A stretch of 64,000 bases of DNA from a virus: IMG/VR virus record IMGVR_UViG_3300023443_000190, positions 8,564 to 72,563 of that record. One strand, 5' to 3'. Shown here one piece after another: positions 8,413 to 40,417 of this stretch. Made by a program: the position numbers and the translations under genes. The notes under the pieces are model-generated. The model saw only the letters and a list, made by a program, of their open reading frames with translations, was not told the DNA's origin and did not search any database. The first letter of the stretch is position 1; every line of letters begins with the position of its first letter.

Positions 8413-8413
8413 A

Positions 8414-24887: not shown

Positions 24888-25307
24888 TCAACAGAACTTA
24901 GTAAGCAATACATTCAAATCTTCCAATTCTTCGGGACTGGCCATATAGCCTTCCTTCAGGCGGATAATATCGTCACGAAGACATTCCGATCCAATTCTTG
25001 GATAATAAACCTCGTACATGGTGCCATCACACAATGCCGAAAACCGATGTACAACGCGGGTGGGAACAACGAACCTTTCTCCGGCATGGACAACCTTCTG
25101 CTGTCCTAAATTTAATTCCCATGTTTCAACCAAGACTTTTCCTCTTGTGACATAAAACACATTTTCTCTCTGTTTGTGATAGTGAATGGAACATCTTCCG
25201 CCAGCCAATAATTTCAAGTGGTGGATCGAAATTTCTTTGTTGTGAATGATCTCGGCAGTCTTTCCCCAGACTTTGTCTTCATAATCTACTAATTCTATTT
25301 CGAGCAT
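24888..25307 (-). CDS. Cupin (sugar isomerase-like)
   Basis: KVWG, CSIHYHKQRENVFYVTRG, VVHRF. Confidence 0.8.
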   Translation of the reverse strand: MLEIELVDYEDKVWGKTAEIIHNKEISIHHLKLLAGGRCSIHYHKQRENVFYVTRGKVLVETWELNLGQQKVVHAGERFVVPTRVVHRFSALCDGTMYEVYYPRIGSECLRDDIIRLKEGYMASPEELEDLNVLLTKFC

Positions 25308-25486
25308 CCAAACAACTCCTTCTCTAAAAGGTCAAAGAGCTTACATACTGATTTGCTCGGGGCAAAAACGCCGCCTTCGTATTGGCTGATTGTTTGCTGA
25401 TTGACGCCTGCTTTCTCACCCAATTCAGTTTGGGTAATTTCCAGCCGTTCCCTCAATCTGATAATATCTTCCGCTTCCCAAACCAC
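25295..25486 (-). CDS. Cro/XRE-family HTH regulator
   Basis: LRERLEITQTELGEKAGVNQQTISQYEGG; AGGAGG RBS. Confidence 0.88.
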   Translation of the reverse strand: MVWEAEDIIRLRERLEITQTELGEKAGVNQQTISQYEGGVFAPSKSVCKLFDLLEKELFGCSK

Positions 25487-26488
25487 TTATGCCTCCTGCC
25501 GTAGAGACTGGGCGGCTTCTAGCCAGTTGAAAAACTTATTCCGCCAGACCTGTAGGCCACCGCGTTCTTTACCGCTTTTTATGGCCTTCTCCCTAAGAAA
25601 GTCCAGTCGAAGCGGATCTTTGAGGAACTTAATCCCGTCTGAAAAGTCGGAGTATTCTCGACACAAATACCCGTCAGCCCCGTGATTGATTTGTTCGATC
25701 TGGCCGCCCTTCATATCGACAATAGGAATACACCCAGCCGCCTGGGCCTCACATACCGTTCTACCATAAGACTCGGTTAGTTTGGAGGACGAGTGCAAGT
25801 GAGCAGTCCAGCGATGAAACAAGTTTCGATTCTTCCACGCCGGTTCGTAAAACTTGGCATTTTCCCCGACCGCTTGACTTAATGGTTCGACGCGATGGTC
25901 TGGGCAGCCGACAAACTCCCATTGAACGTCGGGATGATTCTTGTGTAGGTAAGCGTAGAAATCGTAGAGATCATCAAGGCTCCATTTCTCGCGACCCATG
26001 TGACCGGACGTGCAAAGCTTACCGATCACAATCCCTTCGGCGCGTGGAATCGGCTCTGTCTGGGCGCAAGGTTGATAAAAGACATTCTCGGTATTTTGAT
26101 CGGTTAGGACGGCTAAGTGCATTGAGACCGACCATTCGATTGTGCATTTCTTCCTGGCGGATCGGTGTGTCTTTAATGCCGAATGTTCGTAGAAGATCGA
26201 GATAAAATCCCTCGACAGAAAGTTCGGCATCGTAGACGCGCCAGTGTTGTGAAAGATTACAACGTCTAGTGCGACAGATTCCAGATAGGCAGGCGTGATC
26301 TTACTCACCCGAGATATCTGACAACCGTAATGAGCCTTTTCTTCGTCCGAACATTCTCCGTCGCCAGCATTGACGAAAAGGATTTCGTGGTCCCAGTCTG
26401 GCAAGGCGCGTTTAATCGAATAGACGCAAGCCCCAGTTCCGCCGCAGATGTTTGGGATGTTAGCTATTTGGAGTAGCTTCATGGTCAT
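25487..26488 (-). CDS. GT-B glycosyltransferase (GT4-like)
   Basis: ESYGRTVCEAQAAGCIPIV..KGGQIEQINHGADGYL. Confidence 0.85.
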   Translation of the reverse strand: MTMKLLQIANIPNICGGTGACVYSIKRALPDWDHEILFVNAGDGECSDEEKAHYGCQISRVSKITPAYLESVALDVVIFHNTGASTMPNFLSRDFISIFYEHSALKTHRSARKKCTIEWSVSMHLAVLTDQNTENVFYQPCAQTEPIPRAEGIVIGKLCTSGHMGREKWSLDDLYDFYAYLHKNHPDVQWEFVGCPDHRVEPLSQAVGENAKFYEPAWKNRNLFHRWTAHLHSSSKLTESYGRTVCEAQAAGCIPIVDMKGGQIEQINHGADGYLCREYSDFSDGIKFLKDPLRLDFLREKAIKSGKERGGLQVWRNKFFNWLEAAQSLRQEA

Positions 26489-26939
26489 GGTATTTACTAT
26501 TCACTAGATCAAGGGCTACGATACAACCAAATTCAAAATCCCCTAACGGAGAATCGCCATTGGGTGCGTTGCAAAGCTGGGGTTGCATTCTTTTACTGTA
26601 TTCTTCCCACAAGCCCATATCTTCCAATTTTATTTGAACCGGAAAAAATGACCCATAGTATTTACTAAAACGAGGAACTTCTGCTGGGCCACAGCTTGAG
26701 CAATATGGGTATGACAACGGTTCGTCCCCATCGGATTTTCGGGCTTGATTTTTCTCAAAATGTAATATCCAATCCTCGTTTTCCAAACTTTCTGGCGGAA
26801 AGAACTGTCTAACCATGCACTTCTTTGGGTAGTTTTTTGTGCCTTTTATGGGGATTCCCCAAAACGCCACCCATTTCCAACCAAAGAATTCCTGTGCAAT
26901 GGCCCGATCTAAATCTGTTGTGTTCGGAACAATCATCAT
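26460..26939 (-). CDS. Phage ABA-sandwich-like protein
   Basis: DLDRAIAQEFFGWKW N-terminus. Confidence 0.55.
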   Translation of the reverse strand: MMIVPNTTDLDRAIAQEFFGWKWVAFWGIPIKGTKNYPKKCMVRQFFPPESLENEDWILHFEKNQARKSDGDEPLSYPYCSSCGPAEVPRFSKYYGSFFPVQIKLEDMGLWEEYSKRMQPQLCNAPNGDSPLGDFEFGCIVALDLVNSKYHDHEATPNS

Positions 26940-27463
26940 ATTCTCTTAATCTCCCCCCCAGCAGTTAAAACCCTGATTTCTATAAGTTGCCAGTTTTCTT
27001 TGAAGTGACGTTTGGGTTTGGCGGTTTGTTGTCCGCCTTTGAACTTTTTATGATAGCCGCCTTTGGGGTCGATCCCAACAGTCTCAAACTTTCGATAACC
27101 GTCCCGTAATAGCCAGCAAACAGCCGTCTCTCCAACCGACATGATTCTACCGAAGTATGGTAGAGATCGTTCTGGAGCGGTGTGTAGACAGTAAGTTCTG
27201 ACTTTATCCCTTGGAGCTGGGCTGGCTTCATGCGGAACTTTCTTTTTCCCCCTAACGTCGCAATGCAACCAAGTCGGCAACACAATCGTACCGACACCAT
27301 CCATTGTATCAATTTCTCCAAATGCTGACATATCATTAACGAACAACCAGTCGGCGTTTGGATAATAATTCACAGCCCCGTTCAGACAGGCTACCTTGCC
27401 ATCGAATTCAATCTGTCGAAAGGACGGGCCTTTTCCGACGATCAGGACTTTTTCACGATCCAT
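26936..27463 (-). CDS. Maf/DUF115 (CstII-fold-like) protein 3
   Basis: VLIVGKGPS, VACLNGA, AVCWLLRDGYRKFETVGID. Confidence 0.65.
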   Translation of the reverse strand: MDREKVLIVGKGPSFRQIEFDGKVACLNGAVNYYPNADWLFVNDMSAFGEIDTMDGVGTIVLPTWLHCDVRGKKKVPHEASPAPRDKVRTYCLHTAPERSLPYFGRIMSVGETAVCWLLRDGYRKFETVGIDPKGGYHKKFKGGQQTAKPKRHFKENWQLIEIRVLTAGGEIKRI

Positions 27464-27483
27464 CGAGAACTCCATTTCTGTGT

Positions 27484-28362
27484 TTACGCGAGTTCCAGTA
27501 GAGGTTTGATTGATTTCCACCACTGGGAGTCACGGATGTAATCGTGCCATATTTCTTGTGCCAGCTTACCCATCTGTATGGCCTTAGACACCGTGCATCC
27601 ATCGATAATGTCTAGTGCTGCGACTGTGGATTTGACATGAAAAGAAAATAATCTCCAATCGACAGTATGTGAAAAAGGCTTAATAAATCCCGGCGACACG
27701 ATAACCGGAACCCGACCTGCCGCCATAGCCTCGAAGATTCTACGGGTCGATGGGCCTGCTCCCCTTGGACACAAAGCGAAGTGAGAGTTAAGAAGATTGT
27801 CGCAAAATTCCAAGCCATATCGAGTTTTCTTTTTTTGATTTAGCCCTCTGCATGACGACCCTTTTCTCGGTATTGTGTTTGCATGATCGCCAAATCTTTT
27901 TATTACTTGTCCAATCATTTTTTTACGTTTCCATACCGACGTGTCTCCGCAAAACGACACAAGGTGTTGTGGTTTAACCGTTTCTGCCGAAAATAAATTG
28001 TAGCTCGGCGATCTTTGCGGAAACGGAACTGAATATGTATTGATTTCGTTATTTTGCTTTATAACCGATGGACGAAACATTACGCAATCAGCATAAAACC
28101 TTTCAGTTGAATCGGTGATTTCGAAGATTATATGCTTTTTTTCGTTGCCGTGCCAATAAGCCAGTTTCCTACACCCCTTCTTAATTCTCGATGGAACTTT
28201 AGCCACAGGAAAATATGTATTGCGCAGCCATCTCGGATAGAAATACCAATCACAATCTTCTGGGCCGAATTGTTGAAATATCTCTGCTTTTAGAGCTAGG
28301 ACAGGTTTTCTAAAATCTAGCCCACGAAATTTGGCCTCGTAAAAATAACACTTCATTGACAC
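27484..28362 (-). CDS. Exostosin-like (GT47) glycosyltransferase
   Basis: LVSFCG, SHFALCPRGAGPSTRRIFEAMAAGRVPVIVS. Confidence 0.85.
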   Translation of the reverse strand: MSMKCYFYEAKFRGLDFRKPVLALKAEIFQQFGPEDCDWYFYPRWLRNTYFPVAKVPSRIKKGCRKLAYWHGNEKKHIIFEITDSTERFYADCVMFRPSVIKQNNEINTYSVPFPQRSPSYNLFSAETVKPQHLVSFCGDTSVWKRKKMIGQVIKRFGDHANTIPRKGSSCRGLNQKKKTRYGLEFCDNLLNSHFALCPRGAGPSTRRIFEAMAAGRVPVIVSPGFIKPFSHTVDWRLFSFHVKSTVAALDIIDGCTVSKAIQMGKLAQEIWHDYIRDSQWWKSIKPLLELA

Positions 28363-28468
28363 TTACTTTCATTATGAATGACAGGACTCACACCACACAC
28401 CAGTCCAATTTCTTCCACTAAACATATGGCATGGAAGAATCTCGCCACTATGGTCTATGACCAGCGCC

Positions 28469-28903
28469 TCATTGCCAATTGTTGTCATTACAGATGTTCT
28501 TTAGTCGGTGTCTTCTCATGGCATACCAAACGTAATGTCCCCGATTCTCCAATGATTTTGAAATCATGTCCTGAATGTTTTTGTGCAGGTAGCCGTCAAT
28601 TACGTTAATTGTTCCTCTTGGGTGAAATCCCATCTCATGTTCCAGAAATTGCTTTGCGTACAACTTTCCATAACCCGCCTTATGCAAGTAATCGACGACA
28701 TTCCGTCGTTTTCTCATTCCGAATTCTTGGCAAGTTTTTAATATCTCTTTGTCTGGAAACCACAAATCCATTCTAATGTTGAATGAATCAATCTTGAAGA
28801 ACGGGATATTGCTGTTTAACAAAAGTTGTCTGCGCAAAGTCGTCTTACCATCATTTCCGCCCCCGCTAATCCAAAGTATTATTGTTTTCACGCAACACAC
28901 CAA
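28469..28903 (-). CDS. P-loop protein (kinase/sulfotransferase-like)
   Basis: WISGGGNDGKTT Walker-A-like motif. Confidence 0.55.
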   Translation of the reverse strand: MVCCVKTIILWISGGGNDGKTTLRRQLLLNSNIPFFKIDSFNIRMDLWFPDKEILKTCQEFGMRKRRNVVDYLHKAGYGKLYAKQFLEHEMGFHPRGTINVIDGYLHKNIQDMISKSLENRGHYVWYAMRRHRLKNICNDNNWQ

Positions 28904-29673
28904 TCTAAAGCGTGTTTCCAGTATTCATGCAAGCCGCCGTGAACCCGCCAGTCGTTCGATCCTTTTCGGCCAAGTTCCAAACCATGCTCAAGGTGTTCTT
29001 TGCAAACAGCCCCAGCCTCGCAAGCCGACTTCAATTCGTTCTCCCACAAGTAGGAAAGATGATGGTGAGGGTTGTACCAAGGCTGGTCGGTCTCAAAAGT
29101 GTAATGAAGCAGTTTAGTATCCGATTGCCAGTGATTAAAATCGTTCCAGCGTTTCGTCATGTGTTTGACTGGAAACCAATAACCGTGCATGATCCATTGA
29201 TATGCAAAGACTACTTTTTTGCCGGAATGCGGCACCCCTTTCGACTGAATGTGTTCCGATATCCATTCCTTGTTCCAAAGGGTTCTGTCGGCATCACCAC
29301 AATTTATGACCATAACCGATGTTTGTGGAACCTCTTCTCCTATAGATTCTGCCGTCTTGTCGTTGTGAAAAGCCAAACATGCAGCCTGATACATCCCTTT
29401 CCCAAAGTCCCACAATTCCTGAATGTCTCCCAAGACGAGTTGATCGGCATCCATGTAAATCGCCCTGCCTTCAAAGTTGCAGTATTGCGGAATCAAGAAT
29501 CGGCGTAGAGAAAACCCAGTCGCCTGATGCACATACTTTGAAATCAACCAAGGCTCATAATCTCCCATCGGAATGAATTCGACTTCCGCCTGGGTTCTCT
29601 TGCGTATGGAATGTTCGAGGACAAGTTCGGCGACTTTTGTTTTGGTTTCCGTCCCGCAAAAGATTCGGATCAT
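28888..29673 (-). CDS. GT8-like glycosyltransferase
   Basis: TGFSLRRFLIP, RAIYMDADQLV.GDIQELW, TSVMVINC, KLLHYT. Confidence 0.85.
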   Translation of the reverse strand: MIRIFCGTETKTKVAELVLEHSIRKRTQAEVEFIPMGDYEPWLISKYVHQATGFSLRRFLIPQYCNFEGRAIYMDADQLVLGDIQELWDFGKGMYQAACLAFHNDKTAESIGEEVPQTSVMVINCGDADRTLWNKEWISEHIQSKGVPHSGKKVVFAYQWIMHGYWFPVKHMTKRWNDFNHWQSDTKLLHYTFETDQPWYNPHHHLSYLWENELKSACEAGAVCKEHLEHGLELGRKGSNDWRVHGGLHEYWKHALDWCVA

Positions 29674-30326
29674 CTCTTTCTCCTGATAACAATCTTTGTT
29701 TGTTTGCCCTTATTGGCTTCGGTGATCGCTACAATGTCAAAGCCATCCGAAAGTATTGTCTCGATTTCCAGTCTGTTATGAATTGTGTAGGCCATGTCTG
29801 CTGAAGTTTTTTCTCCAAAATACCAAGTTGTCCATGCAAGCCCGTCGTCGTTTAGAATGCGCCATATTTCTCTAAGGTAATGTCGTGCATATTTCAATAG
29901 TCCAGTGTGAGTAAAAAAAGAGCTGCATATTACAAAATCGATGGAATTGTTAGAGACCGGAATCTTGTAGCTTAGAGTTTTTGTTTTTCCTGACGGGTTG
30001 TATCTTCTGTTGCTTATGTTTGAGTGTTCAAAATTAAATCGATCGTCGCCTCCGTGTTGCTTTCGATTGAATCCGATACAATACTTCTTCGCGTCTATTC
30101 CCAGATAGTTCCCATTCCATTCAGACCATTGTTCCAATCCAATCGCGTCTGCACCGATGCCACAACCTAAGTCGATAATCTTTGATTCATTTTTTATGTA
30201 GCCCCTTTCAATGTATTTATTGATTCTGGTAACTCCACGATCGTAAATTGATTTGTAACCGGCAACAGGCAGGGAGAGTGCAGGAGCTTTTGCCAGACGC
30301 TCTTTCCATTCTTTCTTAGTTCGCAT
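29670..30326 (-). CDS. Class I SAM-dependent methyltransferase (paralog A)
   Basis: IIDLGCGIG, YLGID, DFVICSSFFTH. Confidence 0.87.
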   Translation of the reverse strand: MRTKKEWKERLAKAPALSLPVAGYKSIYDRGVTRINKYIERGYIKNESKIIDLGCGIGADAIGLEQWSEWNGNYLGIDAKKYCIGFNRKQHGGDDRFNFEHSNISNRRYNPSGKTKTLSYKIPVSNNSIDFVICSSFFTHTGLLKYARHYLREIWRILNDDGLAWTTWYFGEKTSADMAYTIHNRLEIETILSDGFDIVAITEANKGKQTKIVIRRKR

Positions 30327-30999
30327 CTTCGGGCTTTCTCAATATGAGTTTCCATTGGCCTTTCATCATCTCTTTCTTTTCGGTACAACCACCCAAATCT
30401 TCAACCTCAAAATACCTGAGAAAGCTGAGAATGTCTCTTTCTCTCATCACAGTTCGTTTGTGCGAGTATTGAATCTGGTAAGGCGGGGATCGATACCATG
30501 TCGTGTAGGCGTATGCACCAGGTTTCATTACGCGCCACATCTCATCCAGATATTGTCGAGTTTCGGCAGGCGTACCAATGTGAGTAAAAAGCGAGTTGCA
30601 AGTCACCAAGTTAAAACGATTCTTCCCAAACGGAAACTTGTACTTCGACGCACTTAATTCTCCTTTCGGCCAGTAACGATCGCTTTTCACATCGGCGTGG
30701 ATGAATTGGAATCGCTCATCTTTTCCAAAGCAGGCTTGCCCCCAGTCAATGCTGCATCTTTGAACGTCAATCCCGACATACTTTTTGAACTTTCCGTCCT
30801 GCTCCAGTCCAATAGCCGTAGGGGCAGCACCGCATCCGATGTCGAGAACATTGTCCTTGTCACCGAGAATGCCATAACTTCGATATCGAACGATTCTCTC
30901 GATGCCGCGCTTGTATATTTCGTGGGAATCCCTTGTGCGAGGCATTAGAACTCGCGGAAGTTTATCAAGCCGTGAAAGCCATTCCCCTTTTTGTCTCAT
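30316..30999 (-). CDS. Class I SAM-dependent methyltransferase (paralog B)
   Basis: VLDIGCGAA, YVGIDV, NLVTCNSLFTH. Confidence 0.87.
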   Translation of the reverse strand: MRQKGEWLSRLDKLPRVLMPRTRDSHEIYKRGIERIVRYRSYGILGDKDNVLDIGCGAAPTAIGLEQDGKFKKYVGIDVQRCSIDWGQACFGKDERFQFIHADVKSDRYWPKGELSASKYKFPFGKNRFNLVTCNSLFTHIGTPAETRQYLDEMWRVMKPGAYAYTTWYRSPPYQIQYSHKRTVMRERDILSFLRYFEVEDLGGCTEKKEMMKGQWKLILRKPEDAN

Positions 31000-31022: not shown

Positions 31023-31865
31023 ATGAAAATTGCTTTTACTGGAAGAACAAGCCTCGGAGGGGTAAGGATGCGAGGAGTTGCGTTGGCTCAATACATGGGT
31101 TATGACTTCATCGATTTGAGAGACTGGAAACACACCAATAAGATTTATGACGCGATTATTTTAATCAAATTCTCCCAAAACTTCAACAGTGATCTGATTG
31201 GCAAAAGCAAGGTTCTGATCTGGGATGCACTCGATTGTTTTGCAAAACACAAAAGAAACTACAAGCCTCATGCTTATTGGAGAAAGAGGTGCCATTCGAT
31301 TAAATGCAATGCCATAATTTCTACATCGCCTGCATGTCACAAATACATGAAAGAAACACTGAAAAGATCGGGCGTTCGAGTATTCCAGATTCCCCATCAT
31401 GCAGACCCTTCAATCGACTTTTCTTGGGGCAATCCCAATGGTCCTGTCGTCTATGTTGGTAATCCAGCCTATGTGAGTAAAAAAACCTTTGGTGTCGTTA
31501 AAAATGTGTGCAAGAAACTTGGGATCAAAGTCATATTCGACCATAGTTTCTTTTCCCAAAGGACGCTGAAGGGTGCCAGTCTAATGCTTCACCCAAGGCC
31601 ACACAAAGTTAATCATACCTTGAACATTCACTGTAAACCCCAGGTCAAAATTGCCAATGCTGCTGCTGCCAATTTGCCGGTCATAGGAACTCGCGATCCC
31701 TGTGTGACAAGTTTGTATGATGGCGTTGTAGGATGGAATGAGTATGACTCGTGGGAAACTCGTATTACGAACGCGTTAAACAGGCCGACTCTCAACAATC
31801 CCGAAACCTTGGAGTCATCGGCAGCTAAAATGTCATCAATGTTAGAAACTCTTCTTGGATCGTAA
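31023..31865 (+). CDS. GT-B-like glycosyltransferase (inverted block)
   Basis: GGVRMRG, KPQVKIANAAAANLPVI. Confidence 0.62.
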   Translation: MKIAFTGRTSLGGVRMRGVALAQYMGYDFIDLRDWKHTNKIYDAIILIKFSQNFNSDLIGKSKVLIWDALDCFAKHKRNYKPHAYWRKRCHSIKCNAIISTSPACHKYMKETLKRSGVRVFQIPHHADPSIDFSWGNPNGPVVYVGNPAYVSKKTFGVVKNVCKKLGIKVIFDHSFFSQRTLKGASLMLHPRPHKVNHTLNIHCKPQVKIANAAAANLPVIGTRDPCVTSLYDGVVGWNEYDSWETRITNALNRPTLNNPETLESSAAKMSSMLETLLGS

Positions 31866-31866
31866 T

Positions 31867-32418
31867 ATGTCTCACAAAGAACAGTTGGAATTCTGTGACC
31901 GAGTCAAGTCCACGTTTCCAGATTATTTCAACAAGTCTCGCGTTTTGGAGATAGGATCGAGAAATCTAAACGGTTCGATAAGAGGGCTGTTTACAGAATG
32001 TGACTATGTCGGCATCGATTGCATGAAAGGCAAAGACGTCGATGTTGTTTGCCTGGCTCATAAATATGAGGATGACCAAGAATCATTCGATGTTGTCTGT
32101 TGTGCCGAATCGCTGGAACACGATCCTTATGCTCCACAAACAATTCTCTCCATGCTGTCATTTCTCAAGTCAGGAGGGTTGTTCTTCTGTACTTGCGCTT
32201 CGACTGGGCGAAAGGAACATGGAACTGTCAGACAAAAAAAGTCGTGGAAACTTTGCGGGCCAGACCACAAGTATTACAAGAATGTCAAGCTAAGCACTTT
32301 GGTTCAATGGATGCTTTACTGCGGGTTTGATTTCGATTCGTTGCATTACGAATACAACGAATCATCAAGCGATCTTTATTGCTATGCAATCAAAGCGATA
32401 TCACCACATTCCTTTTGA
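31867..32418 (+). CDS. Class I SAM-dependent methyltransferase (inverted block)
   Basis: VLEIGSRNLNGS, YVGID..GKDVD, FDVVCCAESLEHDP, LKSGGL. Confidence 0.87.
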   Translation: MSHKEQLEFCDRVKSTFPDYFNKSRVLEIGSRNLNGSIRGLFTECDYVGIDCMKGKDVDVVCLAHKYEDDQESFDVVCCAESLEHDPYAPQTILSMLSFLKSGGLFFCTCASTGRKEHGTVRQKKSWKLCGPDHKYYKNVKLSTLVQWMLYCGFDFDSLHYEYNESSSDLYCYAIKAISPHSF

Positions 32419-33055
32419 AGAGACCGACTAAATCGCCACCGATCTCCTGTAGGATTCGACCAGTCGTTTTGAATGCTCTTGTCGTTGAACCTACGCTGTG
32501 TTCTTCTAATATGATGACTGGTCGGTGTTTACGCAGGACTTCCATCGCTCCGTCAACTACTTCCCATTCCATACCTTGGACATCAATCTTTATGAGAGAC
32601 AGTCCAGATTTATCGAAAAAATCCTCAATGCTATCGAGCGAGATCATGTCTGCCGTTATCGCCGTCTTTTCAAAGTCCATTAAATGCCGACGATGACCGC
32701 TACTCTTTTGGCCATTCGGATCGCACATGTGAAGCTGCCCTTCATGATCGCCCACAGCTTTTTGTGTTGCATTGACCTCAAAAGGTGTGTTAGCCATTAA
32801 GCATTCATAGGTATCGTAAAATGGCTCAAAAGCCAACACCTTCGGAAAATACTGAGCAATCCGACGCGAGAACAAGCCAATGTTTGCACCAACATCGATA
32901 GCACAACCGGAACTTGTTCCAGTCGTCCGATTCGAGATCGCATTCATCGCACATTGGATTTCCAGTTCCATGTAACACTTGTGTCTTCCAGCCTTAATCA
33001 ACGGAGTCCATTCCGTGTCTTCGTCTGGAACGTATAATTTGCCTACTTTTCTCAT
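32390..33055 (-). CDS. FkbM-family methyltransferase
   Basis: AIDVGANIG, VLAFEP, LIKIDVQGMEWEVVDGA, RPVIILE. Confidence 0.9.
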   Translation of the reverse strand: MRKVGKLYVPDEDTEWTPLIKAGRHKCYMELEIQCAMNAISNRTTGTSSGCAIDVGANIGLFSRRIAQYFPKVLAFEPFYDTYECLMANTPFEVNATQKAVGDHEGQLHMCDPNGQKSSGHRRHLMDFEKTAITADMISLDSIEDFFDKSGLSLIKIDVQGMEWEVVDGAMEVLRKHRPVIILEEHSVGSTTRAFKTTGRILQEIGGDLVGLFKRNVVISL

Positions 33056-33798
33056 GTCTTGAATAAAGGCTTTCTTTGTTCGGCGACGACATTGATGTAA
33101 CGTCTGGGATATTCGCTTTTACCGCGAACAGAAACACCGTGAATCGAATGCTTTGAATTCATAAATCCCACCAATACGTTCTGTTTGTATTTCACAGTCT
33201 TAACCAATTCCACGTCATCTTCTCTGATCTGGTTTTGTGGACTGTGTTTGAACTTTCCGCCCTTGTGTTGGTACAAACCGAAGTCGCCGCCAGTGCTATT
33301 GTCGGCTGGGTCTCTGAAATACCAGCACAAGGCATAAAGTTTTCTCACGCTATCGAAGTGAGGGCCTCGAACAGTAGTTCCGCCGCTAGTCGGAGTGTTG
33401 ATTACAAACTGACAATCTGTCGTTAATTCCTGATCGATAGATTTGTCACGAATTGCAGGGTACGAATCAATTCTGCGAGCATATTCATTCGAGCCGTGAC
33501 ATTCTGCAAAAGGCTTAGCAAATATCTGGAGCATTGCATGGAAAAACAGTCCAGTTGATATTTCCATAAACAGACTTTTCCAGACAGCATTCACAGATTT
33601 CGATTCTAAGGCATCCAGGCACGACAATCTCACCGCAATGTTTTCCCCAGCCTCGCTCGAATTTATGTGTGGAAATCTTGAAAACAGGTATTGGTAGAGA
33701 TCAAAGTCATTCAATGGGTCTTCAATCACAAAATGAGGATTCTCCCCGTCGATGTATTCCACTTTTGGGGTTTTCTGTAGCAAGTTGTAATTAAGCAT
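33052..33798 (-). CDS. 2OG-Fe(II) oxygenase
   Basis: GPHFD (HxD), SIHGV, RRYINV. Confidence 0.82.
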   Translation of the reverse strand: MLNYNLLQKTPKVEYIDGENPHFVIEDPLNDFDLYQYLFSRFPHINSSEAGENIAVRLSCLDALESKSVNAVWKSLFMEISTGLFFHAMLQIFAKPFAECHGSNEYARRIDSYPAIRDKSIDQELTTDCQFVINTPTSGGTTVRGPHFDSVRKLYALCWYFRDPADNSTGGDFGLYQHKGGKFKHSPQNQIREDDVELVKTVKYKQNVLVGFMNSKHSIHGVSVRGKSEYPRRYINVVAEQRKPLFKT

Positions 33799-34546
33799 GA
33801 TCGACCTTCAGCAACTTCTCGGATACGTCTTTGAGGTATTTACCCTGAGTCGGTTGGATGAATTTTGAATCTTGTTTTTTCTTCATGGCGCAGACAATTA
33901 TTACATTGGGATACTTCGCACCAGTCCTGCGAGTCTCATCCATCGAGACAGATTGAATGGCTTCCGTAATTTCATTTGACTTTGTTTTTGGAATTATCTC
34001 TTTCATATTATTTGGTGGTACTGACAAGATTGACCTTTCAAATCCCCAGCGGTTTGCCAGAGAAAACATTACTATCTCGTAATTATTTGCACGGGCAAGA
34101 TCAACAAACAATATGGGGTGAAAGCTGTAGAAAGAATGGTTGATCCAATTGATGAACGGCAGGATGTGAAGCATGATTCCGCCGACTTTGCAATATCCAT
34201 GGGCATTATAAAATATCGCGTCTTGGTTAAAACAATGCTCGCCAGTTCCATTATTTGTTACCAAGTCATGTTGTGAGATCATCATCGCCCTTTGATTCAA
34301 ATCACTTAATTCAGCGCCGTGTTTTCCATTCACATCAAGACATTTATAGTCGGAATATCCCATCCCATCGTAAAATACTTTCGACGACTGACCGTTGATT
34401 TTTGACGGCTTTGCAATCCCGACGGGAACCCTGAAATCATCAGGCAAATTGATTGTCTGGTTGCCGAATTCCAAAACGGACGGACTCCCCTGAAAACTCG
34501 GTGTCAAAGCAGCAACAGTTCTCGCCATAATCGGATTAAAAGTCAT
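33791..34546 (-). CDS. SAM-methyltransferase-fold protein
   Basis: VLEFGNQ, YKCLDVNG, DLVTNNGTGEHCFNQ, CKVGGIMLHILP. Confidence 0.75.
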   Translation of the reverse strand: MTFNPIMARTVAALTPSFQGSPSVLEFGNQTINLPDDFRVPVGIAKPSKINGQSSKVFYDGMGYSDYKCLDVNGKHGAELSDLNQRAMMISQHDLVTNNGTGEHCFNQDAIFYNAHGYCKVGGIMLHILPFINWINHSFYSFHPILFVDLARANNYEIVMFSLANRWGFERSILSVPPNNMKEIIPKTKSNEITEAIQSVSMDETRRTGAKYPNVIIVCAMKKKQDSKFIQPTQGKYLKDVSEKLLKVDHA

Positions 34547-35160
34547 CGAGTATTCCGTTCGTAAATTGTGGAATGATACTCACTGAAACCAGGTGGCTTC
34601 TCTTTTGTGTAATAGTAAGCGGCAATGCTTTTTCGATCTTTCTTGACTGGTTCGGGCACGCCATGCCAAGCATTTTCATTGTAAGGAAAAGCGACCAGTC
34701 GGTTAAATAAAGGTGCGATAGATGCCGTGTGTGGTTTTCGCCCAAGTATCAATTCGCCTTTATCATCCTCTTTCCATTTATCATTGAGAAAGAGAAGTGC
34801 ATTCACGCGACGATAAAGACCTTCCTTATTTTGATTGAAATCGACGTGCATATCTAGTTTTGTGCCAACAGGCATCCAATGAAGGCCACCGTCAAAGTTG
34901 GTTTCGTCGCAAACTAAACCAAGAATCCCAAACTCTCTCTCCAGAGTTTCAATCATGGCTTTTGATTTCAGAATCTCCGCTATCCTGATGGTGCTATCAG
35001 GGAACCCACTGCACATAGAAAGTTTTCCACAAGAACTTGCATACCACAAAGAATCGTCTTTATCAGGCCATTCAGAAACAACGTTGTGGAGTCTCGACAC
35101 TGTTAAACGATCATCCCAGACCGTATGGCGAAATGGCCAGCTAGAAGGAAAGTGGATCAA
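34543..35160 (-). CDS. 2OG-Fe(II) oxygenase (prolyl-hydroxylase-like)
   Basis: GGLH..PVGTKLDMHVDFN, RRVNALLFLN, WHG, RKSIAAYYY. Confidence 0.88.
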   Translation of the reverse strand: MIHFPSSWPFRHTVWDDRLTVSRLHNVVSEWPDKDDSLWYASSCGKLSMCSGFPDSTIRIAEILKSKAMIETLEREFGILGLVCDETNFDGGLHWMPVGTKLDMHVDFNQNKEGLYRRVNALLFLNDKWKEDDKGELILGRKPHTASIAPLFNRLVAFPYNENAWHGVPEPVKKDRKSIAAYYYTKEKPPGFSEYHSTIYERNTR

Positions 35161-35942
35161 TTAAACATCTCCCTGACTCTTCCGTGTTCGCCTTTGTTAT
35201 GCGTAATGTAATGTTTGAGAAGCGAATACTGGACAACATGCCCGTCGTTCTTTGATACTCGACCAACGATGTCTCGACAGTCAAATGTACGGGTCGCTTG
35301 ATAATAGACAAAAGAATCATCCCATCGATTCCAAGCTTTGAATTGACCGGAATCATAATATCCTCTCATCTTTTCAAAGACCCGCTTGCCTTTTCGCTGC
35401 ATGTTGTATCCAACAATCCCACATTCAGGAACTAAACGCGGCCCCTTGAGGAAGAAGCCGTCATGTCGTTCATACAAAGACCGAATGTTTTTTGTCTCAA
35501 CCTGACCCTTGAATATACAGTCGCAATCGATCCAGATCATGTCTTTTGACTTTGGGAATTGGACAATCGCGGCATTCAGCGTCACAACCTTACGGAACCA
35601 ACGGCAACAGTTGCGATTGAACCAACTCCAATGGCAGCCTTTGACGTGATTGTTGCTCGGAGGTCTTCCTGCGTCTTTGCAATCGCAAGGCTTGGTTTCT
35701 CCACCCCATTCTTCTGGAATCACATCTTTGTTGGATTGAAGCCAGTCGTGCAAATAAAGGTCTTCATCCAAGTCGTAGAGGAAGATATTGTCGTTTCGCG
35801 GCAAGAGTACAATATCAGAACCCTTGAATCCTTCATGCCCGACAAACATGATTCCATCGGTATTAGTCCTGACGAACGACTCAAGCAATTTCTCGCCTGA
35901 GACTTCGTAGAGTTCTTTGGTGAATGACGTTACCCAGATCAT
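35157..35942 (-). CDS. GT-A-like glycosyltransferase (DxD)
   Basis: VTSF, WFRKV, MIWIDCDCIF, ECGIVGYN, WDDSFV. Confidence 0.7.
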   Translation of the reverse strand: MIWVTSFTKELYEVSGEKLLESFVRTNTDGIMFVGHEGFKGSDIVLLPRNDNIFLYDLDEDLYLHDWLQSNKDVIPEEWGGETKPCDCKDAGRPPSNNHVKGCHWSWFNRNCCRWFRKVVTLNAAIVQFPKSKDMIWIDCDCIFKGQVETKNIRSLYERHDGFFLKGPRLVPECGIVGYNMQRKGKRVFEKMRGYYDSGQFKAWNRWDDSFVYYQATRTFDCRDIVGRVSKNDGHVVQYSLLKHYITHNKGEHGRVREMFN

Positions 35943-36208
35943 TGTTCATACATCTTTCTTGTGACTTCTATCGCCCATTCTTGTGATTCTTTTATGTCAA
36001 CCAGTTCGTCAAGAAGAATGGAAATCCCTTTGGCAATGGCGATGGACAAATTGAGTGTAGTATCATCTTTTCTATCTTCCCAATGACTCCCATCGACGTT
36101 TCCACACTTTAATTCACCTGAGAGCTTTCTTATGTCGGACACGCTATTCACTGTAATCCCTTTCTCGAACATATCCCGAAGTGTCTTCCGGCTCAGGAAA
36201 TCCATCAA
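35939..36208 (-). CDS. Hypothetical protein
   Basis: ATGA coupling at its 3' end; start uncertain. Confidence 0.5.
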   Translation of the reverse strand: MMDFLSRKTLRDMFEKGITVNSVSDIRKLSGELKCGNVDGSHWEDRKDDTTLNLSIAIAKGISILLDELVDIKESQEWAIEVTRKMYEQ

Positions 36209-36851
36209 GATTGTGGAACTTCTTCAGCCGTTCGTAATCTTCAGTCTCCCGACCCAGACCTAAGAACGGAGACAAAGTATAAAACCTGATCCCGTAATGA
36301 TCAGTCAACTTATCTCTCACAATAGAAGAACATTCGTAGTATTCGTCGTAGATGTCCTGTGGTGAGAGACCGTGTCGCCTGACATGCTGCTCGTGGGCGT
36401 GATGATCTCCTCCAAACGAGTTCATGTCACATCCGACGAGAATGGCCGTCTTACAGCCCATTTTGGCAGCCAGGCACATTGCTGTCGCCTGAATGCCACG
36501 ACCGCAGTAAAGGCGGTTATCTTCTGAGGTGAGCGGGGAATAGTCGTGAAGGTCTTTGTTGCTTGTGAAGATACAGACATCGGGATCGTTTTCCTTGAGT
36601 CGCCTGCTCCATGAGTCGGGCGGGCCTTTTGCTTTGGTAATCCATGAGTCGGATTTTATGCTTCCTTCTGGTATTATTTCAGGGTGAATTGTCAGATGAA
36701 ACTTAGTCTTAAAATGGCGGTAAGACTGATTCAATCCAATCGACCTTCTGTTACGAAAAAAGTGAGGATCAAATACGCGAAGGGACGGCCCTGTACCGAT
36801 TATGTAGCAGGTTTGACCCTCCCATCCACCATGCAATGAAGTCACTTTCAT
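36144..36851 (-). CDS. Maf/DUF115 (CstII-fold-like) protein 2
   Basis: CYIIGTGPSL, SIGLNQS, AMCLAAKMGCKTAILVGCDM. Confidence 0.75.
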   Translation of the reverse strand: MKVTSLHGGWEGQTCYIIGTGPSLRVFDPHFFRNRRSIGLNQSYRHFKTKFHLTIHPEIIPEGSIKSDSWITKAKGPPDSWSRRLKENDPDVCIFTSNKDLHDYSPLTSEDNRLYCGRGIQATAMCLAAKMGCKTAILVGCDMNSFGGDHHAHEQHVRRHGLSPQDIYDEYYECSSIVRDKLTDHYGIRFYTLSPFLGLGRETEDYERLKKFHNLDGFPEPEDTSGYVRERDYSE

Positions 36852-37456
36852 AATCCATACTTCTCCTTAAACGCAGCCTTATCAGCCGCAATCAACTCCC
36901 CTCGATTTGGACACAGCTTCTTATTGTGGGCAGTCTTATGACCGAGATGTTTGAGAGGTAAATCGACTTGACATAATGAACCGCCTTCTTTCAAGGCTCT
37001 GATCTGAAAGTCGGTGTCTTGGAAGTAGAGTTTGAACCGTTCGTCGAATCCGCCGAGTTTTGTCCAAAGCGATTTGCTGAAGCAAAGGAACCAGCCTTGA
37101 AGCAGTTTGCGACCCTCATAAAGAGGTTCACGCCTTTTCTTCGCCCCGACGATTTCGTTTTCAGATTTTGGATTGCATAGATCAATGAATTTTCCTTTGC
37201 AGATTATGTCGTTATTCATAAGGATTATGTTTTTGCGATTAGACAGCCTTATTCCAAGGTTCCAAGCAGCAGTCAGTCCTCGCTTGTCGTTTTTGATAGC
37301 AAACACATTCTTTGCGATCACCTTAGAGTAATAATCTTGGCTTGGCCCATCATCTATTATAAAAATATCAACATCACGTTCGTGTTTTCTGATTCCTTCA
37401 ATCAGACTTATTGTTAAATCATCGTTTCCTCGCTGTGGTATCACAATCGTCGTCAT
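36848..37456 (-). CDS. GT2-family glycosyltransferase
   Basis: IVIP, IIDDG, GLTAAWNLG, ILMNNDI, GGFDERFKLYFQDTDF. Confidence 0.9.
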   Translation of the reverse strand: MTTIVIPQRGNDDLTISLIEGIRKHERDVDIFIIDDGPSQDYYSKVIAKNVFAIKNDKRGLTAAWNLGIRLSNRKNIILMNNDIICKGKFIDLCNPKSENEIVGAKKRREPLYEGRKLLQGWFLCFSKSLWTKLGGFDERFKLYFQDTDFQIRALKEGGSLCQVDLPLKHLGHKTAHNKKLCPNRGELIAADKAAFKEKYGL

Positions 37457-38604
37457 CCTATTTCATCCACCTTCATTTCGCGGTTCAGTTCGAGAGCCTT
37501 TTGAGCAATCGGATCAGGCTTTTTCTCCGGTTCTTCTTTCCCACCTTTATCAAGCACACCCCTACCGTAGATGTCCATGTCTTTGTGAAATGGAAGTCCT
37601 TCGTCCGGCTTTGGCTCGACTGTTAATCGTCCCGACGTATACTCTTCTAACACATTCCCTACCTGTTTGTCAATAGCATTTGCAGCTTCCACTTCGGTCA
37701 TGTAAGGGAAGAACGCATTCAGTCTGGAATTTGGCGTACAGGAAACAATCTTCACGCCGTTTAACGAATGGTTTCTTCGCGACAATCTGAGGTATTGGAT
37801 TCGATCCCAATAATGAACGTCGGTTGTAACAGCCGAACTGAACCGCTTAACTTCTTCGCAGCCATACTGGGCTTCGCGTTCGACGGCTTCCATTGCTGCG
37901 GCGACTTCTTCGTTGTCTTTTCCAATACCTTTCGCCTTACACATATCCCTGAAATCGATCAGGCGATCAGACCAGTAGCATTCAGGTTGCTTTTCGCCAG
38001 TCTGTTTCTCAAACTTGACTTGTCCATTCTCATACTCCACGCCTTTTTTGCGAGCCAAATCTATTTGTGCCTGACTTGGTCTCACAATCATATCCACACC
38101 GACGCAGTAGAAAGTACGAAACCCCAACTGAAAACAGATATCAATGGCTTGGATAAAGCTATCCAGAACATTCAGAATGGATTTGGCTTTGATGTCAAAG
38201 AAGTGTTCGTAATAACGGTGTTCCACATCGACAAAGAACGTATTCGGGCAATCGCACATTTTGTACGAGGTACCAGGAACCAAGTCTAAATGCTTTCCGC
38301 CTTTGAGAAACTTGGTAATCGAACTGTCCTTGAACATCGTCCCGAACCAACGAGGGGTCGGATCATAGCTTGTCCAGAAAGTTGGCTTGATTAAATAACC
38401 TTCACCGTCACGTCCTCTGCCTGCGTAGTTCATTGCCATTTTGCAGGCTGGTGATCTTTGGACGATCTCCGTATCAATTGATCGGATGCCTGGCCCAGCA
38501 CCTACGATCCAGACGGATGAGGCTTCAGTTCCGGCATATTGATTTTTGAATTGTTCCGAGCAGTCGTATTTACGTTTATCCGTAGTGCATCTGTAAAAGA
38601 GCAT
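37453..38604 (-). CDS. Maf/DUF115 (CstII-fold-like) protein 1, 383 aa
   Basis: VWIVGAGPG, KMAMN, DSFIQAIDICFQLGFRTFYCVGVDM; start MLFYRC just after the Ser-rich gene. Confidence 0.72.
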   Translation of the reverse strand: MLFYRCTTDKRKYDCSEQFKNQYAGTEASSVWIVGAGPGIRSIDTEIVQRSPACKMAMNYAGRGRDGEGYLIKPTFWTSYDPTPRWFGTMFKDSSITKFLKGGKHLDLVPGTSYKMCDCPNTFFVDVEHRYYEHFFDIKAKSILNVLDSFIQAIDICFQLGFRTFYCVGVDMIVRPSQAQIDLARKKGVEYENGQVKFEKQTGEKQPECYWSDRLIDFRDMCKAKGIGKDNEEVAAAMEAVEREAQYGCEEVKRFSSAVTTDVHYWDRIQYLRLSRRNHSLNGVKIVSCTPNSRLNAFFPYMTEVEAANAIDKQVGNVLEEYTSGRLTVEPKPDEGLPFHKDMDIYGRGVLDKGGKEEPEKKPDPIAQKALELNREMKVDEIG

Positions 38605-38623
38605 CCATTCCCCCGAATTGATC

Positions 38624-40417
38624 TTATGGTGGTTCTGTGGCTTCTTTATCGCTACTGGCCGCCGACGAACTTGCGGCTGAAGAACTTGCGGCTGAAGATG
38701 GTGCAGCCGAACTCGCCCGTGACGATTCCAGACGACTTTGGGAAGCCGCCGAAGACGCCGCCGACTTGTCAGCCGAAGAATCTGCCGATGATTGTATGCG
38801 ATCTGAGCTGTCGCCACTAGATTGAACCAGATCGGAGCTATCGCCACTGGATTTTTTAGCTGAACTATCTGCCGATGATTGAATCTGATCCGAACTTAAT
38901 CCCGAAGATGCAACCAGATCAGAACTTGCTGCCGATGATGCCTGATCCGAACTCAACGCAGATGATACTGCGCCAGAACTTGCCGCCGACGACGCTCGAT
39001 CCGAACTTAATGCCGACGACGCAAGTGCGTCCGAACTTAATGCCGAACTGCGAGCCGAACTGGCTGCGGAAGAGGCAAGTGCGTCCGAACTTCTCGCTGA
39101 AGAATCCGCAGATGATTTATCGGAACTGGCACCAGATGCACTCAATGCACTCGACACGGCGCCCGAACTTCTTATAGAGGATTCGTCTATTGTAGAATGC
39201 TGAGAATCCCGAGACTCGCTAGGAGGATCTTCGCCGTCGCCCAAATCGTCTGGATCGGGTATCTCCCATCTCTGGTTTTCGGGAGCATTGGGAAACTGCA
39301 AGTCTTCCGGTCCAATCGTAATGTCGAAGATTGGCTTATGATCGAATTGAACTCTGATTCTGTCGAATTGACCGTTCGCAATCAGATTAGCGTTTCTGTC
39401 AAGCAAACGAATCCAGCCCAAATGCGGAAGCGGAAATATCCCATCGTATTCCACGCGAAACGTATATCGGACTGTGGCTTGTGCAAACTGAGAAAAGAAG
39501 AAACTCTGGAAGTTTACTGCATCGTGATTCCGCCTGATTTCTGGAGCGAATATCTCGATTACCCTTTCACCGTGCAACGCAATAGAAGGAATATGCTTGA
39601 AATTCCATCGTGACCTGTAAGGGTTGACTGCTCCACCGTAAATATATCCCCCAGTCAACAACATCCGGTTGAAAAGAAGGCTTCGATCTTGCTGTTGGGT
39701 AAGATTTCTGGCGTTCACCCCTTCCTGATACGAAGCAATTGTCGAGAATCTTCTGTTGATGAAATAGAGCTGGCCGAATTCATTGACGCCAACACTCATC
39801 ATACGGGCAATAGAAGAAAGCCTTCTGTAAAGTTCGGCAACCGACTCTTCGCCTCTGACCACCATTGACTGAAAACCGGACAAAATAGGCGGTGATTCAA
39901 TCGATCCAATCACAACATGCGTTTGGGCAGCGACATATCGATCGAACAACAATTTTACGACAGATTCCGGTTGGCCGACTGTATCGACGGTCTGAAAGGT
40001 ATGGTCGGGATCGTTCGGAAAATAATCTGAGTTCGCAAATCTATGCGGTTTCCCGCTGCCAGCATTTGCAAATGCGCCTGGAAACACTTCACCCAATTCC
40101 GCCCACATACCCTGTAAGCTGATCTGGGCACCTTTCGGCGAGGAATGGTCAACGTTTTCGACTCGACCGAAATACCATCTCGTTCCCGCCGTAAACTCGA
40201 AAGCGATCCAGTCGCCAATCTGAACGTCATTTCGATCTGCAAAGCTGTCTCTTAGCGTAATACTTCCAGCCCCGTCGCCTCCCATCCTTAGCTTTTCAAA
40301 CCAAGCATCCGTAACCCGACTGTTACCACCCTTTTCGCTTAGGACTTGCTTGAGCGTAACGGTATCGTTGAAGAAGTGCAGGATTCTGCGTTGATATAAA
40401 CTTGAGTCCCAAGGCAT
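38624..40417 (-). CDS. Tail hub/tip protein with a Ser-rich C-terminal extension
   Basis: Position after TMP and Dit-like genes; ~400-aa globular N-terminus then low-complexity tail. Confidence 0.75.
   Translation of the reverse strand: MPWDSSLYQRRILHFFNDTVTLKQVLSEKGGNSRVTDAWFEKLRMGGDGAGSITLRDSFADRNDVQIGDWIAFEFTAGTRWYFGRVENVDHSSPKGAQISLQGMWAELGEVFPGAFANAGSGKPHRFANSDYFPNDPDHTFQTVDTVGQPESVVKLLFDRYVAAQTHVVIGSIESPPILSGFQSMVVRGEESVAELYRRLSSIARMMSVGVNEFGQLYFINRRFSTIASYQEGVNARNLTQQQDRSLLFNRMLLTGGYIYGGAVNPYRSRWNFKHIPSIALHGERVIEIFAPEIRRNHDAVNFQSFFFSQFAQATVRYTFRVEYDGIFPLPHLGWIRLLDRNANLIANGQFDRIRVQFDHKPIFDITIGPEDLQFPNAPENQRWEIPDPDDLGDGEDPPSESRDSQHSTIDESSIRSSGAVSSALSASGASSDKSSADSSARSSDALASSAASSARSSALSSDALASSALSSDRASSAASSGAVSSALSSDQASSAASSDLVASSGLSSDQIQSSADSSAKKSSGDSSDLVQSSGDSSDRIQSSADSSADKSAASSAASQSRLESSRASSAAPSSAASSSAASSSAASSDKEATEPP
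38651..39220 (-). repeat. Ser-rich coding repeat (SS dipeptide every 4-6 aa)
   Basis: About 83 Ser in 190 aa by manual count; units such as SSAASS, SSADSS, SSGDSS; synonymous codons diverged. Confidence 0.92.

Follow-up and report, generated by a model that had tools for sequence, protein, structure and literature searches.

A Ser-rich tail hub and an adjacent Maf-like glycosyltransferase form a conserved pair in a Planctomycetaceae phage and may constitute a tail-tip glycosylation system

What does a long run of glycan-modifying genes do directly behind a phage tail gene whose product ends in a long Ser-rich stretch? This question is raised by a 64,000-nucleotide stretch of viral DNA, referred to here as the window, which corresponds to bases 8564-72563 of the 73,678-bp record IMGVR_UViG_3300023443_000190. 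The record has direct terminal repeats, and its source is a ~74-kb phage of Planctomycetaceae bacteria. At positions 24888-40417 of the window, the gene of a 597-amino-acid (aa) tail hub protein is followed by a cluster of 20 genes, the first of which encodes a 383-aa protein resembling the Maf flagellin O-glycosyltransferases. A preliminary description of the sequence proposed that the cluster builds a glycan on the hub. Our analysis confirms its observations on the sequence and supports part of its interpretation: the hub, the Maf-like neighbor and their conserved pairing stand, whereas the claim of a complete enzyme set does not. O-glycosylation of the hub tail by the downstream enzymes is the best explanation of the locus, and we give it an even chance of being correct.

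The identity of the 597-aa protein as a tail hub, proposed in the preliminary description, is borne out by its predicted fold. Residues 1-400 were modeled with AlphaFold at a predicted local distance difference test (pLDDT) score of 79.6. Foldseek comparison of the model with the PDB returned Mu gp44, the MuSo2 43-kDa tail protein, T4 gp27, diffocin, extracellular contractile injection systems and siphophage Tal hubs, with E values of 1e-15 to 1e-12 and template modeling (TM) scores by target of 0.55-0.71. The model contains the four-domain hub fold of the gp27/Mu gp44/Tal type. No match was found for this protein in PHROG, Pfam or NCBIfam. Its gene is preceded by genes for a 1034-aa and a 153-aa protein, both without family matches; the module that contains them also includes the terminase, portal and head genes.

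The remainder of the hub is an acidic low-complexity tail. Residues 401-597 contain 82 Ser in 197 residues (42%, compared to 7% in residues 1-400) and carry a net charge of -10. The last 190 residues include 80 Ser, close to the ~83 of the preliminary description, together with 42 Ala and 17 Asp. The described pattern of Ser-Ser doublets every 4-6 residues is also present. The tail has 44 Ser runs, 34 of which are exact doublets, and 37 of the 43 run-to-run spacings measure 4-6 residues. No comparable tract was found in any other real open reading frame (ORF) of the window.

Comparison with a close relative, L003, whose hub domain is 98% identical, indicated strong constraint on the Ser residues. 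Between the two tails, 1 of 76 Ser positions changed, compared to 31 of 102 other positions (Fisher p 6e-8). The codon differs in 25 of the 75 conserved Ser, so their conservation is not a consequence of too little divergence. Spacer positions changed at 30%, about 12 times the rate in the hub domain (10/415). By this comparison the Ser residues are the constrained element of the tail and under purifying selection. The constraint fits modification sites, the alternative being a purely physical need for Ser.

The Maf-like gene starts with an ATG 19 nt past the hub stop codon, in agreement with the ~20 bp given previously, and a purine-rich GGGGGA motif lies ahead of it. A 464-aa ORF with a GTG start (37453-38847, minus strand) lengthens this gene in the upstream direction and reads the DNA that encodes the Ser-rich tail out of frame. 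We rejected it as an artefact of low-complexity DNA, the conserved start being the ATG at 38604. The protein was modeled with a pLDDT score of 89, except for low confidence in residues 320-383, which contain two short helices. Among 48,161 representative PDB chains, the top match of the model is Maf (5mu5_A), with a Z score of 15.0 and a root-mean-square deviation of 4.1 Å over 210 aligned residues. The alignment takes in Maf residues 255-517, its central domain. The next structures are the MptE HPPK kinase (Z 10.3) and the GT29/GT42 sialyltransferases (Z 8-10; GT, glycosyltransferase). Foldseek is in weak agreement, listing CstII and Maf at E values of ~1e-3. In addition, 15 of 32 aligned family members match PF01973, the best at 6.8e-6, and no other family recurs. 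The predicted fold thus identifies the 383-aa protein as Maf-like, with a central Rossmann-like, MptE-like domain.

An exhaustive search with the Maf-like profile retrieved 81 cluster representatives at E values up to 1e-30 and 754 at up to 1e-10. Ten distant matches were scanned; several gave weak MptE-like matches, and three are fused to GT2, FkbM or GT9-type domains. These three relatives of the Maf-like core (P0164, P0169 and P0201) are 830-1100 aa long and carry GT2, FkbM methyltransferase, or Gly_transf_sug and GT9 domains.

The pairing of the hub and the Maf-like protein extends well beyond this phage. The hub domain has 11 sequence homologs, and all homologs come from Planctomycetaceae or uncultured contigs. 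Most end in Ser- or Ser/Thr-rich tails that share no sequence similarity with each other. A scan of one genome per species found 66 hub loci, and gene families were clustered in the 49 loci longer than 12 kb. In uncut loci, the extension past the hub domain is 120-380 aa long, 20-45% Ser and always acidic (median net charge -27), and the Maf-like homolog starts 50-400 bp downstream of the hub. Only Ser content and acidity are conserved; enrichment of Ser-Ser doublets is not general among the relatives (median z 0.3). The 49 loci contain the hub in 49, the gene upstream of it in 48, the Maf-like gene in 48, GT2 in 30 and GT1 in 33. The order of the 153-aa protein, the Ser-rich hub and the Maf-like gene, often followed by GT2 and GT1, is found in 48 of them at 33-42% identity, and nothing is conserved across the loci beyond GT1.

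In 201 sampled Planctomycetaceae genomes, the hub profile matched 75, the Maf-like profile matched 75 strongly, and 72 contain both. The two genes are adjacent wherever coordinates were compared. Co-occurrence of this kind, which the preliminary description suggested looking for in phage genomes, is conserved far beyond the phage. Two of the three genomes with a hub only are cut at contig ends. The third, G056, is the sample's single case of an intact hub that lacks a low-complexity tail (L073:10001-11908). This hub ends in a structured C-terminal repeat of the S-G-x-F-S/T-S-T-I-K type, with five repeats of ~40 aa, and the genome contains no Maf-like gene anywhere. Similarly, the hub on a short contig (P0005, L010:2017-3945) has a globular, Cys-containing C-terminus, and no Maf-like gene is present in the following 834 bp. 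Weak matches to the Maf-like profile (E ~1e-17), in proteins of 370-690 aa, were seen in the hub-less genomes G037, G049, G055 and G074. They are probably host MptE-like or canonical Maf-type proteins.

The cluster enzymes themselves appear suited to a cytoplasmic acceptor. The maximum 19-residue hydropathy is below 1.6 in all 20 proteins, which have no membrane segment and are predicted to be soluble. Pfam scans of the cluster found no flippase, polymerase, priming transferase or GT-C components (GtrA/GtrB, Wzx, Wzy). They likewise found no families of accessory Sec export, signal peptide or cell-wall anchor, and hydrophobic segments are absent. The solubility of the enzymes and the lack of lipid-carrier export machinery fit cytoplasmic protein glycosylation, and favor a cytoplasmic acceptor over a lipid-linked surface polysaccharide.

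These properties also bear on the idea that the enzymes are cargo that modifies a host molecule, an envelope glycoconjugate or a surface protein, for superinfection exclusion or serotype conversion. Temperate phages often carry cargo and conversion genes behind their tail genes, which is where the cluster lies. In the chromosomal locus L002 the element ends with the Maf-GT2-GT1 trio, host genes coming next, and in L009, a related 74.6-kb phage contig, an integrase gene is located just past the cluster. We nevertheless consider a host target rather improbable. The membrane-bound and lipid-carrier components expected of it are missing, the genes are closely spaced and share the orientation of the late structural operon, with a gap of only 19 nt between the hub and Maf-like genes, and promoter and terminator scans of the region remained at chance level. 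A host target would also leave the strict pairing with a Ser-rich hub unexplained.

Modification of the phage DNA is another conceivable function, since phage GTs, 2-oxoglutarate (2OG) oxygenases and methyltransferases can act on DNA (PMC12619734, citing Pyle 2024). The bases would be glycosylated, methylated or hydroxylated as a defense against restriction. We regard this as highly improbable, because the better-supported oxygenase of the cluster matches PF13640 and, weakly, prolyl hydroxylases rather than TET/JBP, and the methyltransferases belong to FkbM and general class I families, none of them DNA methyltransferase families. Moreover, where the conserved core lies in tail-gene clusters of chromosomes, replication genes are missing from its vicinity.

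Several points weigh against glycosylation of the hub tail by the cluster. The first concern the Maf-like protein. The window's copy has no match in Pfam, PHROG or NCBIfam and falls below every Pfam threshold. Searches of PDB sequences with its profile or a fragment gave only a marginal match to 5mu5 (E 0.25) and an irrelevant nanobody. It also lacks the N- and C-terminal helical domains of canonical Maf, which is ~600-700 aa in all; having the catalytic core without the flanking domains, it is classed as Maf-like and not as Maf. The protein could instead be inactive, a structural tail-tip or receptor-binding part with a GT-like fold, the Ser-rich tail then being purely physical. The gene following a siphophage hub usually encodes a baseplate or receptor-binding protein, which together with the missing domains and Pfam match would agree with such a role. 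We judge it very unlikely, however, as a set of polar residues is invariant in the family, whose Rossmann-like core opens with a G-x-GPS-type motif, distant relatives carry fused domains of bona fide GTs and methyltransferases, and GT2 and GT1 genes regularly come next. A complex prediction for the full hub and the Maf-like protein scored 0.00; it gives no answer and counts neither way.

The main counter-evidence comes from L009. Its 1004-aa hub (L009:6940-9954) is mostly globular, with two repeated ~180-aa domains and a terminal domain, and yet the large cluster is kept. The preliminary description had held that relatives with the cluster and without the Ser-rich tract would speak against its proposal. 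L009 goes part of the way, as only two S/T-rich linkers of ~55 and ~25 aa remain. In other homologs Ser-rich segments serve as plain linkers; in P0010 (L011:1455-3677), for example, a Ser-rich linker joins the hub to Big_12 and a further domain. Judging from these sequences, the hub C-termini are modular across the relatives. The conservation is also weaker evidence than its counts suggest. Because the neighboring genes are passed on together with the rest of the element, the numerous loci do not amount to independent tests. With few negatives, and positives of shared ancestry, the census reflects tight linkage and not independent co-evolution.

L009 and P0010 could both be accommodated if the cluster glycosylated other virion proteins, such as capsid, tail tube or fibers, instead of or besides the hub, and if the Ser-rich tail were a flexible spacer or entropic bristle. 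The known acceptors in mycobacteriophages are the C-termini of capsid and tail-tube proteins, according to PMC12619734, and a structural module at 5178-8457 of the window supplies further possible targets. We think this unlikely, though it deserves consideration. Constraint on the tail Ser is far stronger than a spacer would require. The hub tail is the only Ser/Thr-rich tract among the real ORFs of the window, and in L009 the most S/T-rich segment is likewise in the hub. Furthermore, the minimal chromosomal versions retain only the hub and the Maf-like gene, side by side.

A last point against glycosylation of the hub tail is the sugar donor. No nucleotide-sugar or nonulosonate synthesis genes, NeuB-type included, are found in the cluster, and strong NeuB is present in only one of five complete carrier genomes. 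The classical Maf donor would thus mostly be unavailable, and we rejected a nonulosonate donor as the general case. The enzyme set of the locus is accordingly not complete, contrary to the preliminary description. Bacteria that produce lipopolysaccharide (LPS) make the cytidine monophosphate (CMP)-activated form of the ulosonic acid Kdo (3-deoxy-D-manno-octulosonate). Maf enzymes also accept CMP-Kdo, and they glycosylate Ser/Thr flanked by apolar residues (PMC11339370; bioRxiv 10.1101/2020.06.03.131540). Kdo is for these reasons the preferred candidate donor.

For the proposed pathway, we infer which enzymes act on which substrate, the sugar donor, the sequence of steps and the role in the biology of the phage; it would proceed as follows. 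Glycosylation of the tail would take place in the cytoplasm of the host, while phage tails are being assembled or earlier. The Maf-like enzyme would prime Ser residues of the hub tail with a CMP-activated ulosonic acid, probably Kdo, or with another host-supplied sugar. The conserved GT2 and GT1 would then extend the glycan, and the enzymes of the ~11-kb cassette between their genes (GT-A, GT-B, GT8-like, GT47, the second MptE-like protein, methyltransferases, oxygenases and cupin) would elongate, methylate and hydroxylate it. Since a trimeric hub is expected from the fold, three acidic, disordered Ser-rich tails would be displayed per virion. The tail tip would then carry a mucin-like brush of glycans that serves in adsorption or protects the tip; the preliminary description had put forward a shield, a host-surface mimic or adhesion.

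The cassette between GT2 and GT1 is the variable part of the system. The conserved core of Maf-like, GT2 and GT1 genes is contiguous in chromosomal loci. In the window, GT1 is separated from GT2 by 11 kb and 16 genes. L009 has the same layout, with a collinear backbone at 27-48% identity that consists of Maf-like, GT2, the second MptE-like, GT-A, FkbM, GT8-like and 195-aa genes, GT1 at the far end, and the cupin. Compared to L003, the window cluster is a mosaic, with gene identities from 94% down to 36%. The lowest value belongs to the GT47 gene (27484-28362, L003:13882-14757), which lies amid flanking genes that are ~93% identical; this divergence looks like an allele swap. L003 has no homolog of the oxygenase at 34543-35160 or of the 144-aa ORF. 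The plus-strand pair at 31023-32418, a GT-B-like and a methyltransferase gene, is also absent from this close relative and therefore looks like a recent insertion. The mosaic gene content defines the GT2-GT1 interval as a variable cassette. The expanded L009 cluster also contains a CTP_transf_3 (CMP-sugar synthetase-type) gene at L009:18305-19051, and its presence hints at a CMP-activated donor.

The inventory of the cluster largely matches the preliminary description (Table 1). Eighteen of its 20 genes are on the minus strand and two on the plus strand, which agrees with the mostly co-oriented run reported. The six GT-like genes are all accounted for: GT2, GT8-like (just under the cut-off), GT47 and GT1 by Pfam, and the GT-A-like and GT-B-like genes by Atlas only. 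Five methyltransferases were also counted correctly, four by Pfam and the one at 33791-34546 by Atlas, as was the single cupin. Two of the three genes called Maf-like were retained. The gene at 37453-38604 is Maf-like by fold, and that at 36144-36851 has PF01973 below the cut-off and a match to PHROG 4603, 'alpha-2,3-sialyltransferase' (7.6e-10); it aligns to the Maf-like profile with an hhalign probability of 90% over 22 columns and has a homolog in L009. The third, the 195-aa ORF, was rejected, the hhalign probability being 5%. Of the two 2OG oxygenases, that at 34543-35160 is solid, with additional weak PDB sequence matches to prolyl 4-hydroxylases (E 0.01-0.04), while that at 33052-33798 remains weak.

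Table 1. Features of the hub locus and the glycan gene cluster, with positions in the window
Feature	Size	Position	Strand	Basis
Probable tape measure protein	1034 aa	40879..43983	-	Position and size
Conserved hub partner, distal-tail-like position	153 aa	40418..40879	-	tblastn, locus clustering
Hub protein	597 aa	38624-40417	-	ORF translation
Hub residues 1-400, baseplate hub domain of gp27/Mu gp44/Tal N-terminal type		39218..40417	-	Model and Foldseek
Hub residues 401-597 and stop, acidic Ser-rich low-complexity tail, proposed O-glycan acceptor		38624..39217	-	Composition, comparison with L003
Maf-like (MptE-like/GT42-like fold) glycosyltransferase, proposed priming enzyme	383 aa	37453..38604	-	Model, family profile
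GT2-family glycosyltransferase	202 aa	36848..37456	-	PF00535 28.1 bits, above cut-off
Second MptE-like/sialyltransferase-like protein	235 aa	36144..36851	-	PF01973 30 bits, below 34.6 cut-off
ORF	89 aa	35939..36208	-	No family match; weak L003 homolog
GT-A-like (nucleotide-diphospho-sugar transferase-like) protein	261 aa	35157..35942	-	Atlas structure matches only
2OG-Fe(II) oxygenase, prolyl-hydroxylase-like family	205 aa	34543..35160	-	PF13640 8.2e-16
Class I S-adenosylmethionine (SAM) methyltransferase-like protein	251 aa	33791..34546	-	Atlas, TM 0.85 to Methyltransf_11/23 clusters; no Pfam match
Possible second 2OG oxygenase, weak	248 aa	33052..33798	-	PF13640 18.6 bits, cut-off 27
FkbM-family methyltransferase	221 aa	32390..33055	-	PF05050 6.2e-18; homologs in L003 and L009
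SAM methyltransferase	187 aa	31855..32418	+	PF13489 2.5e-10
GT-B (GT4-like) protein	280 aa	31023..31865	+	Atlas only, TM 0.72-0.79 to GT4/Glycos_transf_1 clusters
SAM methyltransferase	227 aa	30316..30999	-	PF13649 and PF08241 at 1e-11 to 1e-12
SAM methyltransferase, paralog of 30316..30999 gene	218 aa	29670..30326	-	PF08241 5.8e-9
GT8-like protein	261 aa	28888..29673	-	PF01501 24.0 bits, cut-off 24.3; 93% identical in L003
ORF	144 aa	28469..28903	-	No family match
GT47 (exostosin-like) glycosyltransferase	292 aa	27484..28362	-	PF03016 1.5e-17; PDB Exostosin-1 6.8e-5
ORF	195 aa	26936..27523	-	No Pfam, PHROG or NCBIfam match; homolog in L009
ORF	159 aa	26460..26939	-	No family match
GT1-group (GT4-like, GT-B) glycosyltransferase, conserved end of core	333 aa	25487..26488	-	PF00534 1.5e-10
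Cupin, last cluster gene	139 aa	24888..25307	-	PF07883 3.7e-8; weak mannose-6-phosphate-isomerase-type matches

The GT-A-like protein is 93% identical in L003 and 35% identical in L009. It matches viral Atlas clusters with GT8, Nucleotid_trans or Gly_transf_sug domains at TM scores of 0.7-0.83, and these are often fused to MptE-like and Methyltransf_24 domains. Fusions of MptE-like, Methyltransf_24 and GT-A domains were also noted among the viral clusters of Atlas in general. The two adjacent methyltransferase paralogs share ~33-35% identity, with cross-matches in L003. L009 has a cupin homolog in the corresponding place. Position 24888 marks the end of the cluster, and beyond it lies a gene for a PDDEXK/DUF3799 protein.

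Upstream, the minus-strand structural module begins with the large terminase (57823-59394), continues with portal and head-morphogenesis genes and reaches the 1034-aa, 153-aa and hub genes. The 1034-aa protein contains the sole strongly hydrophobic segment of the region and has homologs of 980 aa in L003 and 963 aa in L009 at the same position; it matches nothing in Pfam or PHROG. Neither does the 153-aa protein, whose homologs are located directly upstream of the hub in 65 loci by tblastn and have a median length of 148 aa. The second structural block, at 5178-8457 on the minus strand, is ~30 kb from the hub, past the glycan cluster and replication and recombination genes, so the tail genes are split. 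Its 870-aa and 221-aa proteins match PHROG 'virion structural protein' families. Among 50,697 GenBank phage records, no match was found by megablast of the region or by tblastn of the hub and the Maf-like protein, and the lineage is therefore uncharacterised.

Chromosomal versions occur in cultured Planctomycetaceae isolates, namely four Planctomicrobium strains, Maioricimonas sp. JC845, Thalassoglobus neptunius KOR42 and SH248. In Planctomicrobium sp. SH527 (L041:4744-12961 with L081), tail genes, the hub and the Maf-like gene occupy ~8 kb amid core host genes. WD40, DUF1501/PSCyt2 and plsX-fabD-fabF genes lie upstream, ribF follows directly downstream, and no head genes were found within 8 kb. 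The hub gene is single-copy in 75 of the 201 genomes, and only 29 of the 49 loci include a capsid-like family. SH527 and the similar loci L002 and L032 look domesticated and may represent a gene-transfer-agent-like or tailocin-like element. Planctomycetaceae take extracellular polysaccharides into the periplasm by a route that is unresolved (PMC5394234). It is a long shot, but a polysaccharide-coated tip could act as a programmable glycan lure. Its structure would be set by the fast-changing GT2-GT1 cassette, the tip would exploit the polysaccharide uptake route to reach the surface or periplasm, and the chromosomal copies would be domesticated particles using it between kin.

To our knowledge, phage virion glycosylation has so far been demonstrated only for mycobacteriophage capsid and tail-tube proteins, and Maf-type enzymes are known to us only as flagellin glycosyltransferases. 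Full-text searches of the literature found no paper on a Maf-like enzyme or a Ser-rich tail in phage. New here are the module in a complete free phage genome, the 11-kb variable tailoring cassette, the selection on Ser positions, and the tail-less hub without the enzyme genome-wide. If the hub tail is glycosylated as proposed, it would be a second natural substrate class for Maf-type enzymes, and a mucin-like glycan would sit where the virion makes its earliest contact with the host. The locus would in that case be a natural cassette, of possible use in glycoengineering, in which soluble GTs and tailoring enzymes act on a simple Ser-Ser acceptor. The idea is directly testable, because the acceptor and the core enzymes are encoded by four small soluble genes.

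Among known systems, Maf flagellin O-glycosyltransferases (Magnetospirillum Maf, PDB 5MU5; Clostridium botulinum CbMaf) resemble the phage enzyme in the fold of the catalytic domain and in the MptE-like signature found in part of the family. The proposed substrate is also comparable, being Ser in an exposed part of a self-assembling extracellular filament protein that is modified in the cytoplasm. The tail Ser are flanked by apolar residues, as with the Aeromonas enzyme (PMC11339370). Unlike Maf, the phage protein is only 383 aa long without the flanking domains, and it is linked to a phage hub and not to flagellin genes. Its neighbors are the hub and GT genes, with no nonulosonate synthesis genes nearby, and the candidate acceptor is a low-complexity, disordered tail, where flagellin offers a folded domain. 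In Aeromonas, the flagellin glycan begins with a pseudaminic acid-like sugar, additional GTs can lengthen it, and the flagellin carries methylation as well (PMC7874193, PMC9290775). The transferases known for sugars of that type are Maf enzymes. By analogy, the Aeromonas case is the closest worked parallel to the proposed mechanism.

In mycobacteriophages, the C-termini of capsid and tail-tube proteins are glycosylated (Freeman 2023, as cited in PMC12619734). The two systems share phage-encoded GTs beside structural genes and C-terminal extensions of virion proteins, here as the candidate acceptor. They differ in that the mycobacteriophage acceptors are capsid and tail-tube subunits present in hundreds per virion, while the candidate hub is present in few copies at the tip. 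The enzyme families are not the same either: the conserved partner here is a Maf-like protein, accompanied by a much larger set of tailoring enzymes. Glycosylation is demonstrated in the mycobacteriophages and predicted here. The serine-rich repeat adhesins of Gram-positive bacteria (Fap1, GspB; GtfA/GtfB, accessory Sec) also have long Ser-rich repeats with short-period spacing and several adjacent cytoplasmic GTs (PMC2952246). The phage locus has no GtfB-like partner, SecA2/SecY2, signal peptide or LPXTG anchor. The adhesins contain a dipeptide repeat, while the phage tail has a Ser-Ser doublet with 2-4 spacer residues on a phage tail protein.

Chloroviruses and giant viruses glycosylate their capsids with virus-encoded, cytoplasmic, host-independent GTs and sugar methyltransferases. 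Their hosts are eukaryotic, and the glycans are atypical, N-linked and carried by the major capsid protein. Compared by description, their set of GTs and methyltransferases is similar to that of the phage cluster. The nearest system is the phage-derived hub/Maf-like/GT2/GT1 cluster in Planctomycetaceae chromosomes, which has the same hub and Maf-like families in the same gene order. The window differs in belonging to a free phage with terminal repeats, in its 33-42% identity to these copies, and in ~11 kb of extra genes between GT2 and GT1. The conserved pairing of a Maf-like enzyme with a Ser-rich tail tip would extend both phage virion glycosylation and Maf-type enzymology.

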